Under the pieces are notes generated by a model. The model saw nothing but the letters and a program-made list of their open reading frames with translations. It made no database searches and had not been told where the DNA came from. The position numbers and the translations under genes are program-made. A DNA stretch of 64,000 nucleotides from a virus: IMG/VR virus record IMGVR_UViG_3300030098_005498, positions 1 through 64,000 of that record. One strand, 5' to 3'. Of this stretch, positions 49,312 through 62,322 are shown one piece after another. The number at the start of each line of letters is the position of its first letter. Position 1 is the first letter of the stretch.

Positions 49312-50247
49312 TTAAAATTGGTCATCGAAACTAGACCAGTCAATTTCTCTGGCGGGAAATCCATCTACATCACTAAAGACCCAAGCACCCCCTCCAGAAA
49401 GCATTCCACGGGCATCTTTTTCTCTAATCCAAAAAGATCCTTCTGGCTGTTCATGAACTTTTGGGCCACTATTCCAAATGCCCCAACTGTTTTGTACCAG
49501 GAACAGAGTTTCATTAAGTCTTTCTTTTGTGTCGTCACAGGCGATCCAAGCCATCGCGTGTGCCCACGAACCTGACTTTTTAGCAATGCCGTTAGAATCT
49601 CTACGAGAACTAAAACCATATCGAGAACATACAGATAAAGCGTATCCATTCGCTAATGCATCTCTAGCCTCTTCTACAGTTCTTACGTTTGAAATTGTTT
49701 TTACTTGATGTTTACTTGCTTCTGTCTTGTATACACTATCGGGGATAAGTTTTTTAGCTCCTAATCTTGAGTTATATACTGTAAGGTCTCCGTGCTCTAC
49801 ATTGTAGTCTTTTCTTAAAAGTATACCACCGTTTTGTGCGACATATCTAGCTGCACCTGAACACGTCATCCCCTGACCCATATGTTCACGAGATTGATAA
49901 ATTGCTTCGGTTGCGGATCGTGTTTCAAATATTTCTCTATCATCTTTGTGTAAAATTTCATAAGCACGAGTTACATCTACCGCATTACGTGTGCTATGTG
50001 ATACGCAGTCCCCATCAGTCTGCCTTTCAGATGGACCAAACCCTGGATCAAATTTTAGTAATGCTTTGAAGGGTAGACTAAGTTTCCCCTCCCCAGATCC
50101 AAATAAATCATATGCAGCAGCACCAAAAATAGGCATGGGCAATTCGCCAAGTAGTGCCTTTACATCTTCTTCATCACAAATTGCACCAACAAAACCATCT
50201 TTGTAGGCTTTCAAAGTTTGTCTAGGTGTTATAAAATTAGAGTCCAT
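49312..50247 (-). CDS. Papain-like (C1 family) cysteine peptidase
   Basis: Q..GDCVSH (catalytic Cys), WAHAM (His), VQNSWG (Asn), G.FW. Confidence 0.85.
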   Translation of the reverse strand: MDSNFITPRQTLKAYKDGFVGAICDEEDVKALLGELPMPIFGAAAYDLFGSGEGKLSLPFKALLKFDPGFGPSERQTDGDCVSHSTRNAVDVTRAYEILHKDDREIFETRSATEAIYQSREHMGQGMTCSGAARYVAQNGGILLRKDYNVEHGDLTVYNSRLGAKKLIPDSVYKTEASKHQVKTISNVRTVEEARDALANGYALSVCSRYGFSSRRDSNGIAKKSGSWAHAMAWIACDDTKERLNETLFLVQNSWGIWNSGPKVHEQPEGSFWIREKDARGMLSGGGAWVFSDVDGFPAREIDWSSFDDQF

Positions 50248-51289
50248 TTAGTAACTCCTGTGCTGAATTTTTCCACGTAAATTGGTTGGCTGTATGCATA
50301 CCCATAAAATTTTCTACATTACCCCATTTTTGTTTAGTTTTATGTACAGATCTAAGATGTTCAATCAGTTGATCTTTTGCTCTCTGATTAAAGCTCGCCC
50401 ATTGTCCATACTCGCCAGAAAAGAAAACACCATCATGGGCATTTTCTAATTCATCAATGTTGATCAAATAGCAATTTTCCTTATTGCAAAACTGGGTGTG
50501 TGCTGAGTAATTTGTGGCTATAACGGACTTGCCGCAGGCCATCATTTCTAATAGCTCTAAATTCCATCCTTCGGCTCTTGCTGGAAAAACACCACAATCC
50601 GTTTGCTTCATTATATTATACACATCTTTATGTGTTTGTTGTCTTGGAATTATTCTTATCTTGCTACCCAGGGGGGAGTTCTTGTACAAATCTTGCCAAC
50701 CTTGATTGTTGGGTCCAATGAAAGGATTATCACACATCATCCATAATTCTACATTATCAGTTTGTTTAAAAGCTTCGTTAAAACATTCTAATAAAACATC
50801 ATGCCCCTTACGCTTTTCCCATTTTCCACAATTAAAAAAAATGGTTTCTTTGCGACTAGACTTTTGAGGTCGGAACGTTTCAAGATCCACTCCGAGTGGT
50901 ACGACATGGACAGGCGGACAGGTCCATCCCTTTTGATTGTATAAAACATCTTTAGCCCATTCTGAGCAGACAAATATTTTATCACAATGCATAATGCTTA
51001 TTGCTTCTTCATGAGAAAATTCTGTTAATTCAAAAATGGGAAACCCTATATGGAGACCCTTTCCTACATGTGTATGTAATTCATTCTGATGCCAAATCTT
51101 TACAGAGGGATTGTCAGACAAATCTGTAAATCTATTGGTCATCCCGGCACGAATATATTTATCAACAAACTCTGGTTTAGAAATAGGATATAGGGAAGTG
51201 GATGGATGAAGTTTGTATAACTCTTTATAAATATTGTACCCAGCTACCCCATATCCTAAATTGTTAATTGGTGTAATTAACTTTAACAT
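50237..51289 (-). CDS. Glycosyltransferase family 4
   Basis: LGYG, PLGVD, GKWEKRKG, PARAEGWNLELLEMMACG. Confidence 0.88.
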   Translation of the reverse strand: MLKLITPINNLGYGVAGYNIYKELYKLHPSTSLYPISKPEFVDKYIRAGMTNRFTDLSDNPSVKIWHQNELHTHVGKGLHIGFPIFELTEFSHEEAISIMHCDKIFVCSEWAKDVLYNQKGWTCPPVHVVPLGVDLETFRPQKSSRKETIFFNCGKWEKRKGHDVLLECFNEAFKQTDNVELWMMCDNPFIGPNNQGWQDLYKNSPLGSKIRIIPRQQTHKDVYNIMKQTDCGVFPARAEGWNLELLEMMACGKSVIATNYSAHTQFCNKENCYLINIDELENAHDGVFFSGEYGQWASFNQRAKDQLIEHLRSVHKTKQKWGNVENFMGMHTANQFTWKNSAQELLNGL

Positions 51290-58795: not shown

Positions 58796-59137
58796 TTAAA
58801 AGGTTTCAGCCTTTTCCCTAATTGGCTTAACAACCTTAGAAAACGTACTAGGCAGCACAGAATAAGAAGTACGACTAACTCCATTTTTGTCTTCCCAATT
58901 ACGTTGACGCAATCTGCCATCAATAATTACACGATCACCTTTGCTAAGGTCAACATTTTGTGCATATCCGGCATGACTTCCCCAACCATCTACATCCATA
59001 TAAACAGTTTCTTCTTTTCCATTGCCTGTGCTTTCATTGACAGCAATACGAAAAGAAACGAGATCCTTATCAGACACTTGCTTATATTCTGGATCTCTAG
59101 TCAAATTTCCCTTTAGAATAATTCTATTATTCAACAT
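58796..59137 (-). CDS. ssb: Single-stranded DNA-binding protein
   Basis: NRIILKGNLTRDPE, FRIAVN, W...A...LSKGDRVIIDGRLRQRNWEDK.G. Confidence 0.9.
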   Translation of the reverse strand: MLNNRIILKGNLTRDPEYKQVSDKDLVSFRIAVNESTGNGKEETVYMDVDGWGSHAGYAQNVDLSKGDRVIIDGRLRQRNWEDKNGVSRTSYSVLPSTFSKVVKPIREKAETF

Positions 59138-59151
59138 TTCAAGCTCCCAAA

Positions 59152-59364
59152 TTAAGTTACATTTCTACGATTCAAAGCTTTGCGGGTCAAGGTTCTAGCA
59201 CGATTAACACCGCCTGTACGAAGAAGGCTACGAACCTCTCCCCCTGTATCAGTTCCCGCAAAATGTGAATAAAATTCACGTCCAGTAATGTCCCCCATTG
59301 CAAATTTTTGTGCAAGAGATACATTCTTGCGATTCGATAAAATCGAATTCCAATCAGTCATCAT
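59152..59364 (-). CDS. Hypothetical protein
   Basis: Operonic ORF with GGAG RBS. Confidence 0.55.
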   Translation of the reverse strand: MMTDWNSILSNRKNVSLAQKFAMGDITGREFYSHFAGTDTGGEVRSLLRTGGVNRARTLTRKALNRRNVT

Positions 59365-59786
59365 TTACTCTCTCCTTTCAAAGAAACACTCACTAATTTA
59401 TGTGGACAATTATACAAATTATCGCACAATACAGACTTTTTAAATTTGCCCATATATAGGATATGGGTTCCCCCCGATACTTGTCGCTTTCCGAACTTGG
59501 AAATCTCATAAGCTTTTATATAATCTCTTCCAAGTCCTTGAATTTCAAATTTACCATATGACCCCATGTAAACCTTTTCTTGTGTTTCAGGATTTTGCCA
59601 GTAAGGACCGTTGCCATATATAGATCTTATAATATCACCAGTTTTTAATTCCTTCCAATCTTTAACCAATGCCACTTTTTTAGTGTAAAAACAATGTCCA
59701 CAATCACATTCAGATTTTCTTGCATGAACTTTTAATCCACATTTTGGACATGTTTTAAGTGGTGCCCCACGTTTCTTTTTAGCCAT
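59361..59786 (-). CDS. Zinc-finger hypothetical protein
   Basis: CPKCG...CDCG. Confidence 0.65.
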   Translation of the reverse strand: MAKKKRGAPLKTCPKCGLKVHARKSECDCGHCFYTKKVALVKDWKELKTGDIIRSIYGNGPYWQNPETQEKVYMGSYGKFEIQGLGRDYIKAYEISKFGKRQVSGGTHILYMGKFKKSVLCDNLYNCPHKLVSVSLKGESK

Positions 59787-59884: not shown

Positions 59885-60403
59885 CTATTTATCAACTCTT
59901 TTTGATGATAACATAACCGCAGATTCAATAAAATCTTTATCGTCAATTTGATTCGACGGAATGTAAAAAATATTGATAGTTTCTGAAACCATTTTTAATA
60001 CTTTGTGATAGTCTTCATTCCCAATTACACATTTAGGATCTGACACATCTGTAAATATAATTTCTCTTATACCACATTGGTATAATGCCTGCAAACAATA
60101 CAGACAGGGAATTGCGGTTACATAAGCCGAGGCCCCCAGTGTGCTACGTCCTAGTCTTGTGCAGTTATAGATCGCATTTGCTTCAGCATGAATCATGTAT
60201 GGATATTTTTCTGGCCTACTTTTAGGAAGTGCATCATCATCAACATTTCTAATAAAACCATTGTATCCACTAGATAACATAGTTTTATCTTTAACCAATA
60301 CACAGCCACATTGTGTTTGCTGATCAGGACTTGATCTTGACCAAAAGATTGCTTCCAATAAAAATTTATTATCCCATTTTGTTAATTTTCTAGATTCAAA
60401 CAT
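59885..60403 (-). CDS. dCMP deaminase
   Basis: S.D..TQ.GC, SGYNG, HAEANA, PCLYC. Confidence 0.9.
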   Translation of the reverse strand: MFESRKLTKWDNKFLLEAIFWSRSSPDQQTQCGCVLVKDKTMLSSGYNGFIRNVDDDALPKSRPEKYPYMIHAEANAIYNCTRLGRSTLGASAYVTAIPCLYCLQALYQCGIREIIFTDVSDPKCVIGNEDYHKVLKMVSETINIFYIPSNQIDDKDFIESAVMLSSKRVDK

Positions 60404-60429
60404 GCTACATCCTTAATAGTTCAATATTT

Positions 60430-60698
60430 GGAATGGCGAATTGGGTAACAAGGCTCGCCACACCCCGTGCTACTTACGCAGCAAGTGCAAGAGTTTCCTC
60501 TGCATTTAAAAATTTGATCTTGTTTTTAGGTAGCCTCAAGACCAACTACCACATGCAACCATTACTTCTATTTGTACGTCGAATCTAAGTCACCCCCTTT
60601 TTTAATTTATCGAGTGGAGGTGGGGGGAATTGCACCCCCGTCCGCAGCAAATGCCTATAACAGCGTCTACATGTTTAGTTCTCCAAAAGAAGAACAAA
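60430..60698 (-). ncRNA. ssrA: Circularly permuted (two-piece) tmRNA: acceptor piece about 60698-60615, 17-nt spacer, coding piece 60597 to about 60430
   Basis: T-arm GGGGG-TGCAATT-CCCCC + CACCTCC-A precedes the 5' strand GGGGGTG (G3.U70 pair); GATTCGAC, P2 pairing, pk1, tag GCA..TAA = AEETLALAA (60503-60474), helix 5 and pk2. Confidence 0.92.
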
Positions 60699-60741
60699 GC
60701 CAATCCTGGGAATCGAACCCATAATATACCTATTGGTTGGC
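60699..60741 (-). ncRNA. Armless tRNA-like minihelix (acceptor stem + T-arm only)
   Basis: GCCAACC-12 nt-ATGGG TTCGATT CCCAG-GATTGGC; no D or anticodon arm. Confidence 0.5.
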
Positions 60742-60745
60742 TGTA

Positions 60746-60853
60746 TCAATTTAACCACAGCGGTGCTACACTTGTAACAAACAACATTACACAAATAGCC
60801 CAAAATACCGGATTTAGAACGCAAGTAAACATCCACTGTGAAATAAGCCTCAT
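60746..60853 (-). CDS. 35-aa hydrophobic membrane peptide, not in ORF track
   Basis: MRLISQWMFTCVLNPVFWAICVMLFVTSVAPLWLN with AGGAG RBS. Confidence 0.5.
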   Translation of the reverse strand: MRLISQWMFTCVLNPVFWAICVMLFVTSVAPLWLN

Positions 60854-60954
60854 CTTTTTTCTCCTATACAATAAAAAGTTAACGATGTGGGAATAACTAC
60901 CATTATGGATTATTACGCATTATGAAAAGAAAATGCGAATATATTGTCTATTTG

Positions 60955-62322
60955 TCAAACTATTATCTCTTCTATTGAAAATGTTTTTGCTTCCTCTCCG
61001 TTAAAGTGAAAAGGAATTTGATCTTCCAATGGAACAGAGTATTTGGCACATCTGCCACAGTTTCTATTTCCACCATTACCACCGTGGTTGGTGGCTGAAT
61101 ATTTTGAAATATGTTGCACCGGAGATGGGTCAAAGAACCACATAGATCTACCCATTTTGTTCATAATCCCCCCTATAGCGGTATCGCTATTTTGGATAGT
61201 GTGTGGATTTTTTTCTCTTTCCCTTTTCTTGTTTTCCCATGCTGACTTTGTTTTTATTCTGGCACCTCTCCAGTTTTCTATCATCGGATGTTGCATCACC
61301 TGTTCTAAAACTTTTCTCGGCCAAATAACTGCACAAGTTCCCCATAGTGCCCTTGTGGGAATATGATTCAGTCCAATAGGTCTATAGGGTTTGCTTTTAA
61401 GATGTTGTCTTTTACTATAATGCCTGGGTGTATATAATGATACAAATCCAGTTGTGGTACAGGGCCATAAAAATTTTTCAGAAAAAGACTTTGAGTCTGG
61501 GTGGAACAATGAATCATCTTGTACTGTCATTATAATATCTGCATCACTATTGTCAAGTGCATATCTACAGCTTGATATCCAATTCCACCAAATTCCTTTT
61601 CTTTCTTCGTGAACAATTAGGTTTTCTTTATATTCATCATTTATTTGATACACTCCAGGTTCGGCAAATATATATGGTCTCCAGCCATTTATTAGCAAAG
61701 AATCTAAACAAAGTTGCAATGTTGGTTCTTTTCTTGGTGCTGTTGTCACAGCTACAAACCAATTGTGTTTTTGCCTGCCTTCTTTTTCTTCCGCTCTTCT
61801 TATAGCCGTTTGAACCAGATTTGTACAAACCTTACGGGTAGCAAGGTCTGGAACCCATGACAAAAAACTACGTTTATTTTTTTCGTTTATTAATCTTTGC
61901 ACTATGTGATGAATATTTCTCTTGCATCCTTCAATGCCCCATAAGTTCATTTTTTTTGCATAGTTTCTACAGTCGCACGACGGTTTTTCCATCCACTCTG
62001 GAATCATTTTCTTCAATTCTGTACCCGGACCTTCGCCAAAATATTCTTTTGCTTTTTCACGAACTTCTACTCTTGTCTTGTCTTTATTTGCCAATCTTGC
62101 AAATCTAATGCCTTTATTATCTGGAGATTTTTCATATCCTCCAGCGTTTTTACACAATGTACAATGAACTGTTTCAACATATACTGTTTGTTTGTTGTTA
62201 TTTAAACTCGTGGCAAATTTACAAATCATATTATTTGTTGTCGGGCATTTTGTACGCATATTACATGGAAGGTTTTCAAACTGTTGTGTTTCAACCACTC
62301 TAATATTTTTTTTGTTATCCAT
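60955..62322 (-). CDS. Cys-rich N-terminal domains fused to a GT-A glycosyltransferase-like domain
   Basis: GPGTELKK...CDC...MN.WG..GC module, then VTTAPR...QDD.LF...DPSPVQH. Confidence 0.65.
   Translation of the reverse strand: MDNKKNIRVVETQQFENLPCNMRTKCPTTNNMICKFATSLNNNKQTVYVETVHCTLCKNAGGYEKSPDNKGIRFARLANKDKTRVEVREKAKEYFGEGPGTELKKMIPEWMEKPSCDCRNYAKKMNLWGIEGCKRNIHHIVQRLINEKNKRSFLSWVPDLATRKVCTNLVQTAIRRAEEKEGRQKHNWFVAVTTAPRKEPTLQLCLDSLLINGWRPYIFAEPGVYQINDEYKENLIVHEERKGIWWNWISSCRYALDNSDADIIMTVQDDSLFHPDSKSFSEKFLWPCTTTGFVSLYTPRHYSKRQHLKSKPYRPIGLNHIPTRALWGTCAVIWPRKVLEQVMQHPMIENWRGARIKTKSAWENKKREREKNPHTIQNSDTAIGGIMNKMGRSMWFFDPSPVQHISKYSATNHGGNGGNRNCGRCAKYSVPLEDQIPFHFNGEEAKTFSIEEIIV

Follow-up and report, generated by a model that had tools for sequence, protein, structure and literature searches.

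Two-piece transfer-messenger RNAs (tmRNAs), encoded by circularly permuted genes, were reportedly described for Alphaproteobacteria (the Caulobacter type) by Keiler et al. in 2000, and for Betaproteobacteria (Dechloromonas) and Cyanobacteria by Sharkady and Williams in 2004. To our knowledge, the bacterial permutation events are all old and have no close one-piece relatives. Here we focus on a permuted tmRNA gene in a 64,000-nucleotide stretch of viral DNA, hereafter the window, which forms the first 64 kb of the 89,483-base IMG/VR virus record IMGVR_UViG_3300030098_005498 (57% complete according to CheckV), and on its relation to one-piece genes that occupy the same locus in sister phages.

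A few bacterial lineages are held to have acquired the two-piece form independently of one another, and this recurrence serves as the chief argument for a benefit of an opened mRNA loop in trans-translation (PMC3978253). Two-piece tmRNAs of phages are not in themselves new, as the kind has already been published. In the Melnitz paper, 53 of 133 unique phage tmRNAs are two-piece by ARAGORN, 50 of these being marine or aquatic, and the phage two-piece genes are placed with the three known lineages of their hosts (PMC9004378). A tmRNA database of 2025 lists 79 phage sequences and was the basis of the Rfam model RF04321 (PMC11915505). The literature searched contains neither a one-piece and a permuted tmRNA at one locus in related phages nor a tmRNA of a planctomycete phage, although the supplementary tables of PMC11915505 and PMC9004378 may list relatives.

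The permuted form of the window gene probably arose inside a family of phage tmRNA genes, separately from the three bacterial two-piece lineages. Since a one-piece gene stands at the same spot in sister phages, the swap of the two halves probably took place within these phages. With somewhat less assurance we favor a fuller account, in which the permutation occurred inside marine, probably planctomycete-infecting phages as an independent further origin, the one-piece gene survives at the locus, and the alleles have been swapped, perhaps aided by endonucleases (L303, L366; see below). A family of widespread marine phages would first have captured a one-piece gene, probably from planctomycete-like hosts. 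The gene would then have been permuted within the phage family, most simply once, losing about 120 nucleotides (nt) with the pseudoknots pk3 and pk4, and one-piece and permuted alleles now share the locus in sister phages, among which they appear to be exchanged. New in this account are the one-piece sister genes at the same locus, the supported joint clade, the mapped break and the tRNA-Thr origin of an adjacent minihelix.

The gene is confirmed as real, far beyond chance. ARAGORN calls a permuted tmRNA on the minus strand at 60383-60704 with the tag AEETLALAA, and the general permuted model RF04321 matches at 105.3 bits over model positions 1-213 (cut-off 47, E 1.7e-19). Both calls bear out a preliminary description made from the sequence alone, and every element that it listed is present at its place (Table 1), including the fully paired acceptor stem with its G3.U70 wobble and the discriminator A. 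Its reading that CCA is not encoded also agrees with the sequence, in which CTCG follows A60615 and supplies just one C. The one-piece model RF00023 is unreported for the window because clan competition kept alpha_tmRNA, and the contiguous order which RF00023 describes is absent, the halves being swapped. The gene very likely works as a two-piece tmRNA.

Both gene forms occur at one locus in sister phages. The GT4 glycosyltransferase of the window (50237-51289), which has 346 relatives in IMG/VR, served as a handle, and 80 of the relatives' loci were fetched with 10-kb flanks; these and other collected loci are cited by L numbers. Parts of a tmRNA were detected in 20 of these 80 loci with ARAGORN and an nhmmer profile, and nhmmer divided the 20 into 8 permuted, 10 one-piece and 2 partial. 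The permuted order is present in L294, L303, L309, L330, L334, L335, L348 and L360, and the one-piece order in eleven loci (L296, L298, L361, L363, L365, L366, L367, L368, L369, L370 and L373). Among the latter, L298 shows only its coding part by nhmmer and is called one-piece by Rfam; L319 has only an acceptor-type match at the locus edge. RF00023 scores 77-107 bits for L296, L298, L363, L365 and L366, and RF04321 scores 88-100 bits for L309, L330, L348 and L360. The phage one-piece genes have the full standard length of 342-344 nt and match RF00023 end to end. Furthermore, the one-piece locus L296 and the permuted loci share a neighborhood, with homologues of window positions 60955-62322 upstream and of 59361-59786 and 58796-59137 downstream.

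Closer relatives of the window gene include L003, which is 97% identical and has the same neighbors, L041 (71% over 172 nt, tag ADESLALAA), located on a 162,690-base contig, and L013/L113 (tag GVENYALAA), from a 172,984-base genome with terminal repeats that is rated 100% complete. The phages of L003, L041 and L013/L113 share several proteins with the window at 35-70% identity. In the GT4 protein tree, the window phage has the one-piece L296/L298 as its sister group (support 82), with L013 and L041 far removed. At least two changes of gene form are required on this tree, and the tmRNA trees separate the forms cleanly; alleles of the tmRNA locus have probably moved between related phages.

Some of these loci carry additional sequence in or beside the gene. 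At L366:3848-4699, the one-piece tmRNA is directly followed by an open reading frame (ORF) of 138 residues of the Endonuclease VII family (PF02945, 72 bits), and then by a second, different copy of the last ~90 nt of a tmRNA, identical to the L365-type 3' end; the ORF resembles a mobile nuclease gene carrying its own copy of the tmRNA 3' end. The spacer between the two pieces measures 5, 13, 19, ~30, 71 or ~600 nt in relatives of the window gene. The longest belongs to the permuted gene at L303:3722-4557, which RF04321 misses, and contains an ORF of 183 residues with its own ribosome-binding site; this ORF has no Pfam match and looks HNH-like by eye only. Just past the acceptor piece of L303 lies a short remnant resembling another tmRNA 3' end.

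The kinship of the phage genes was assessed by trees, profiles and BLAST. The trees used the segment from the 5' acceptor strand through pk1 (later through pk2) together with the last 77 nt, aligned in un-permuted order. In all four trees that include the one-piece sisters, the permuted genes of the phages group with the one-piece genes in a single clade, supported with 100/94 (196 rows), 98/90, 98/83 (117 rows, 262 columns) and 89/69. In each of them it stays distinct from the main alpha-like permuted clade, which comprises 76 genes of bacteria and viruses. Monophyly of the 11 permuted phage genes is supported with 82/59 in the 98/90 tree and 97/87 in the 117-row tree. The phylogenetic comparison with known permuted clades that the preliminary description had proposed places the window gene outside the alpha-like clade in five of five trees. 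A first tree from a quick search (180 rows), with the window clade among standard tmRNAs, is worthless by itself, as an approximately unbiased (AU) test found a better tree in which the clade was held next to the alpha-like genes.

A profile made from the phage one-piece genes only gives the coding pieces of all 11 permuted genes 48-86 bits, compared with 10-39 bits for an alpha-like permuted profile and 11-38 bits for a bacterial standard profile. When the window coding piece is compared by BLAST with all 395 collected loci (3.03 Mb), the best 20 matches all belong to this phage lineage, with E values of 1e-10 to 1e-36 among the hits. These 20 include 11 one-piece genes, which match colinearly with up to 67% over 159 nt (E 1.7e-12). 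Full-length coding-piece alignments are obtained only to genes of this lineage, and no alpha-like permuted locus matches at E <= 0.01. Individual elements of the genes agree with this grouping. The pk1 is of the long S1-TTGG..-S1'-TAAAAA-S2' type, whereas alpha-like genes have a short pk1, and the P2 strand contains CATGTAGA as in standard tmRNAs, unlike alpha-like genes. In the P2 3' strand, the sequence CTAAACATGTAGA is shared with standard tmRNAs and with the phage one-piece genes, and at this place alpha-like genes have CGTTGA or CAATAAA. The tags form one family with conservative changes across permuted and one-piece phage genes, including AEPCLALAA, AEPSFAIAA, ADESLALAA, VEENFALAA, GKNTLALAA and ANASFAMAA in sister genes; the tag frame of the window gene starts with an Ala resume codon and ends in a hydrophobic ..LAA-type degron and a stop.

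Between the two forms the break can be located. Positions 1-157 of the coding piece are colinear with 1-158 of the 344-nt one-piece L365 gene, and positions 20-84 of the acceptor piece with 280-343, so that the permuted gene is without ~120 nt containing pk3 and pk4, two pseudoknots that the preliminary description had likewise reported as absent. One of the new ends immediately follows pk2, and the other immediately precedes the hairpin before the P2 3' strand. This break fits the published model of a tandem duplication with subsequent loss of the outer parts (PMC3978253). No intermediate proving that model was found among the loci examined.

The structure of the permuted gene is retained with compensatory change. 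We aligned 10 permuted genes of the phage lineage over 66 proposed pairs, with the partner strand slid and 500 shuffles as controls. For these pairs, 90.6% of the cells are paired compared with 38-46% after sliding, and 32 pairs show changes on both sides compared with 5-11; none of the 500 shuffles reaches the observed values. The acceptor helix is 95.7% paired with 2 covarying pairs, and G3.U70 is invariant in 10 of 10 genes. In P2, pairing amounts to 94.3% (P2c), 100% (P2b) and 78.3% (P2a), and 8 pairs change on both sides. Especially well supported is pk1, in which 10 of 12 pairs covary (stem 1, 98% paired, 4/5 covarying; stem 2, 97% paired, 6/7 covarying). The P2 and pk1 helices proposed earlier are upheld by these data, and for pk2 the pseudoknot as such stands, with its stem 1 redrawn: GGGTG/TACCC is 80% paired with zero compensatory change and gave way to CGGGG/CCTTG (60467-60463 with 60453-60449), which is 100% paired with 2 covarying pairs. 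The pk2 has a conserved (A/C)CCAA loop, and its stem 2 is 57% paired on the 10-gene alignment, which is gapped there. The tag frame, the resume codon and the stop in or beside the helix-5 loop are kept in 10 of 10 aligned relatives.

A link to planctomycetes is likely, on the basis of the tags, one odd chromosomal gene and the tree position. By BLAST, the L041 coding piece matches a 2.3-Mb, 38% G+C metagenome-assembled genome (MAG) of the Planctomycetaceae with 81% over 73 nt. The ssrA gene of this MAG encodes the tag AEPMFLAA and follows immediately on smpB; secDF, tsaD and a C-terminal protease gene are also nearby, and these neighbors mark the gene as chromosomal. It groups with the phage one-piece genes (91/84). 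Ten order-mates of the MAG have ordinary tmRNAs, scoring 152-190 bits compared with 110 for the MAG gene, and their tags AEPSYALAA, AEPAYNLAA and AEPAYSLAA are very like the phage tags. A permuted tmRNA is present in 0 of 151 sampled Planctomycetota genomes. The earlier impression that the phage genes look non-proteobacterial fits the likely planctomycete link, with the qualification that this link is one of tmRNA and tag similarity only. As for the outlier ssrA of the MAG itself (L380/L382, G538:C57; L382:9885-10238), a phage allele may have taken the place of the host gene or converted it.

Several observations weigh against an origin of the permuted form within this phage family. AU tests never reject a grouping of the phage permuted with the alpha-like genes (p 0.62, 0.286 and 0.132; in the last test the alpha-like grouping was worse by 26.8 log-likelihood units), and deep branches are weak and shift between trees. 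In the 89/69 tree, the alpha-like clade is the next-but-one neighbor of the phage clade, inside which the split has a support of only 43/28. One tree has L013 outside the other permuted genes, an arrangement that would require either two events or one reversal; that the permuted genes are monophyletic is not rejected there (p 0.46). Global pairwise identity is best at 71% to phage one-piece and 70% to alpha-like genes, and was dropped as a discriminator, all groups lying at 63-71%. The window gene passes the Rfam model RF01849 (alpha_tmRNA) with 64.8 bits against a cut-off of 50, and the T loop of L309 and L348, GGCAGTA, resembles the alpha consensus. The host is inferred from tmRNA and tags only, and a BLAST search of 401 Planctomycetota genomes with the window coding piece gave 3 short matches, all of them outside tmRNA genes. 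In their pk3/pk4 region, the one-piece genes of the phages are without sequence similarity to planctomycete tmRNAs (27-43%), and the ancestral state therefore rests on parsimony. Finally, expression is weakly supported by a single 168-nt contig of one metatranscriptome library, which covers 60453-60620 without difference; as this RNA contig includes the spacer, it may be a precursor or carried-over DNA.

The same AU tests, alpha_tmRNA match and T loops speak for an alternative that we regard as unlikely, namely that the gene is an alpha-type two-piece tmRNA from the marine alphaproteobacterial and pelagiphage pool and owes its one-piece likeness to recombination or to generally conserved features. 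A degenerate T-arm pattern points the same way, being common to at least 120 IMG/VR contigs, with tmRNAs called by ARAGORN in 79 of 121 loci, 77 of them permuted and, among the matches listed, mostly tagged ANDNFA..ALAA. This pattern is not diagnostic, however, since standard tmRNAs of many phyla show it as well: it is present in at least 120 bacterial contigs, nearly all with standard tmRNAs, including Planctomycetota, Bdellovibrionota, Omnitrophota, Candidate Phyla Radiation (CPR) and Bacillota among the matches listed. The alpha match itself is limited to positions 40-274 of the 355 of RF01849, the part common to all permuted genes, and the alpha-specific terminal segments (1-39 and 275-355) are absent from it, whereas true alphaproteobacterial genes score 232-256 bits and one at 256 bits has these segments. 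Among the siblings, L041 and L013 pass no clade-specific Rfam model, L330 (3096-3449) fits beta_tmRNA best with 97.5 bits, and L309, L348 and L360 reach 68-84 bits on alpha_tmRNA; the alpha label of the window gene is not evidence of descent. The long pk1 and standard-type P2 strand, the low alpha-like profile scores and the lack of any coding-piece BLAST alignment to alpha-like loci likewise argue against this alternative. An independent permutation, which the preliminary description had raised as possible, is thus the best-supported reading by trees, BLAST and one-piece kinship, with the reservation that the AU tests do not reject an alpha origin.

It would be improbable, moreover, that the direction was reversed, with the permuted form ancestral in the phage lineage and the one-piece form derived by re-permutation or replacement with a host gene. 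The GT4 tree lends this some appeal, since permuted genes are found in its most distant phages (L013, L041) and one-piece genes in L296/L298, which nest next to the window phage; so does the tree in which L013 branches before the one-piece/permuted split. Yet the phage one-piece genes are full length, are matched by RF00023 over their whole extent and group with a chromosomal ssrA of a planctomycete, and all other sampled bacteria of that phylum are one-piece. To regain ~120 nt of pk3/pk4 after their loss would be unparsimonious, and the permuted genes are monophyletic in two trees, a grouping not rejected elsewhere. Highly improbable is a decaying or non-tagging remnant, such as a decoy that titrates SmpB, as proposed for the RNA of phage DS6A, which consists of a tRNA-like domain (TLD) only (PMC4131195). 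The upstream tRNA has decayed in the window and no phage smpB was found, which would suit a remnant, but the structural helices are kept through compensatory changes, the tag frame with its resume codon and stop persists in every aligned relative with conservative tag changes, and G3.U70 never varies. Most of the probability not assigned to a permutation within these phages goes to an alpha-pool origin or to the reversed direction.

The T loop TGCAATT was also considered as a lineage marker, in the form of an exact 25-mer and of the degenerate T-arm pattern, and was rejected on account of its matches in many phyla. With it was dropped the idea that the one-piece gene of L002 is a direct ancestor. 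This gene (L002:6-363, on a 183,648-base viral contig) is a one-piece tmRNA with RF00023 at 100.8 bits, is missed by ARAGORN, does not encode CCA and is identical to the window over the 29 nt of the T arm and acceptor end; a block of at least 26 tRNA genes lies on the same strand ~7.4 kb away (L002:7779-13236). Very short genes are found at L006 (6256-6349; tmRNA-like, RF00023 53.5 bits) and L050 (~75 nt ending at the T-arm match), with the 5' acceptor strand just 46-62 nt before the T arm. They resemble the TLD-only RNA of mycobacteriophage DS6A (PMC4131195).

The flanks of the gene suggest how its two pieces might mature. Neither ARAGORN nor Rfam calls the minihelix at 60699-60741. It aligns to an intact tRNA-Thr(tgt) at the same place in L303, L330 and L334, and is fully paired in L003 with two mismatches in the window; by its sequence, it is a decayed copy of tRNA-Thr. 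The intact tRNA-Thr(tgt) abuts the acceptor piece in L303, L330, L334 and L335. At the opposite end, a tRNA lies directly 3' of the coding piece in L013 (4685-4755) and L348 (4056-4127), abutting it or overlapping it by a few bases, and an RNase P cut of that tRNA would create the 3' end of the coding piece. If the promoter-like site TTGATA-17-TATTAT is used, transcription would start within the former T loop; the promoter scan found 2 sites compared with 3.2 +/- 1.9 in shuffles, which is not above chance. No terminator-like site is present on the minus strand at 60200-61100, nor between pk2 and the dCMP deaminase gene.

The precursor would contain, in this order, the decayed tRNA-Thr, the acceptor piece, the 17-nt spacer and the coding piece, and pairing in P2 and in the acceptor stem would give it a tRNA-like domain. 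Cleavage by host RNase P would occur on the 5' side of G1 (60597), and together with tRNA-processing enzymes acting on the neighboring tRNAs this cut would define most ends. CCA is encoded in L013, L330 and L360 and missing from the window, L041, L309 and L334; where it is missing, a host CCA-adding enzyme would be needed, which together with host 3' trimming would complete the acceptor piece at A60615. Alanyl-tRNA synthetase would then charge the acceptor piece through G3.U70. The absence of smpB, noted earlier for the window, extends to the whole 89,483-base record and to the records of five relatives (two of them at least 98% complete), and the RNA would therefore have to use host SmpB. With it, the charged RNA would gain entry to stalled ribosomes, where A-AEETLALAA, a degron of the ClpXP type, would be added.

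Table 1. Elements of the permuted tmRNA gene and its flanks (window coordinates).
Feature	Position	Strand	Remarks
Decayed tRNA-Thr-like minihelix	60699..60741	-	Directly upstream of acceptor piece; T arm and 3' acceptor strand remain
Promoter-like TTGATA-17-TATTAT	60721..60749	-	Sigma-70-like, 10/12 matches; overlaps the decayed tRNA
Acceptor piece	60615..60698	-	5' hairpin 60695-60678, P2 3' strands 60674-60643, then T arm onward
T arm	60639-60623	-	Read in sequence
Acceptor 3' strand CACCTCC	60622-60616	-	Read in sequence
Discriminator A	60615	-	Alanine identity
Intervening spacer CTCGATAAATTAAAAAA	60598..60614	-	17 nt; presumably excised in maturation
Coding piece	60434..60597	-	Acceptor 5' strand, D-loop analogue, P2 5' strands, pk1, tag, helix 5, pk2
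Acceptor 5' strand GGGGGTG	60597-60591	-	7/7 pairs with CACCTCC, including G3.U70
pk1	60550-60516	-	Just 5' of resume codon
Tag frame AEETLALAA	60474..60503	-	Resume GCA at 60503, TAA 60476-60474 (ARAGORN)
Helix 5	60482-60469	-	In coding piece
pk2	60467-60434	-	3' end of coding piece
dCMP deaminase gene	59885..60403	-	Downstream neighbor, 30 nt past pk2; PHROG phrog_174, E 3.5e-30

The window belongs to an uncultured marine phage. All 24 listed runs are labelled marine metagenome, 17 DNA runs contain at least half of the window's sampled words, and the rows containing the stretch come from 6 studies. The window has a G+C content of 36%, with nearly all genes on the minus strand, and its recognizable genes encode a DnaB-like helicase, a UvsX-like recombinase, a class I ribonucleotide reductase (RNR), ThyX, dCMP deaminase and a split DnaE. 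The big, presumably structural, proteins of the window have no PHROG match, and no hallmark structural protein was found via PHROGs and Pfam. Protein comparison reveals no close isolated phage (DnaE at most 36% identical, RNR ~55% to marine myophages), a conserved 311-residue protein has no match, and the tmRNA gene has no blastn match among 50,697 phage records.

The occurrence of permuted and one-piece genes in the same slot makes the break mappable and the tandem-duplication model testable, and allows a functional comparison of both forms in a single host background. If an origin within these phages is correct, the pair would represent a near-contemporary before and after of a rearrangement otherwise known only as an ancient event, and phages might then be a source of two-piece tmRNAs as well as a means of their spread. 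Via tmRNA and tags, the finding would also link a large group of uncultured marine phages to low-GC Planctomycetota. For phage genes, clade-specific Rfam labels (alpha, beta) should not be taken as ancestry.

In comparison with known systems, the window gene shares with the alphaproteobacterial two-piece tmRNA (RF01849), whose cut-off it passes, the order of acceptor piece, spacer and coding piece, the hairpin before the P2 3' strand, a tRNA-like domain formed from two RNAs, and the retention of pk1, tag and a 3' pseudoknot with loss of pk3/pk4. It differs in being without the alpha-specific 5' and 3' terminal sequences, in its pk1 and P2 of the standard-tmRNA type, and in that the likely host phylum of its phage uses a one-piece tmRNA. 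Like the two-piece genes of the Methylophilales phage Melnitz and of pelagimyophages (PMC9004378), it is a permuted ssrA that a marine phage carries without smpB, presumably to sustain ribosome rescue or to tag proteins during infection. Those genes, however, group with the alphaproteobacterial lineage of their hosts, encode CCA, have a short pk1 and, in a further difference from the window, often follow a TATAAATA late promoter, whereas the window phage belongs to another group and has DnaE-type replication, structural proteins that PHROGs do not recognize and a tmRNA that is kin to one-piece genes. The betaproteobacterial and cyanobacterial two-piece tmRNAs (RF01850, RF01851) were likewise permuted independently, and the sibling L330 passes the beta model; the window gene finds its best clade-specific match in alpha, and the one cyanobacterial reference (L249) and a beta-like viral group fall elsewhere in the trees than the window clade. 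With respect to the one-piece RF00023 genes of the sister phages and of Planctomycetota (L380 and its order), the window gene has its halves swapped and is missing the pk3/pk4 region. Otherwise it is colinear with them in the acceptor 5' strand, P2, pk1, tag, helix 5 and pk2 as well as in the P2 3' strand, T arm and acceptor, has a similar tag of 8-9 residues, and, in the case of the sister phages, occupies the same locus in the phage genomes.

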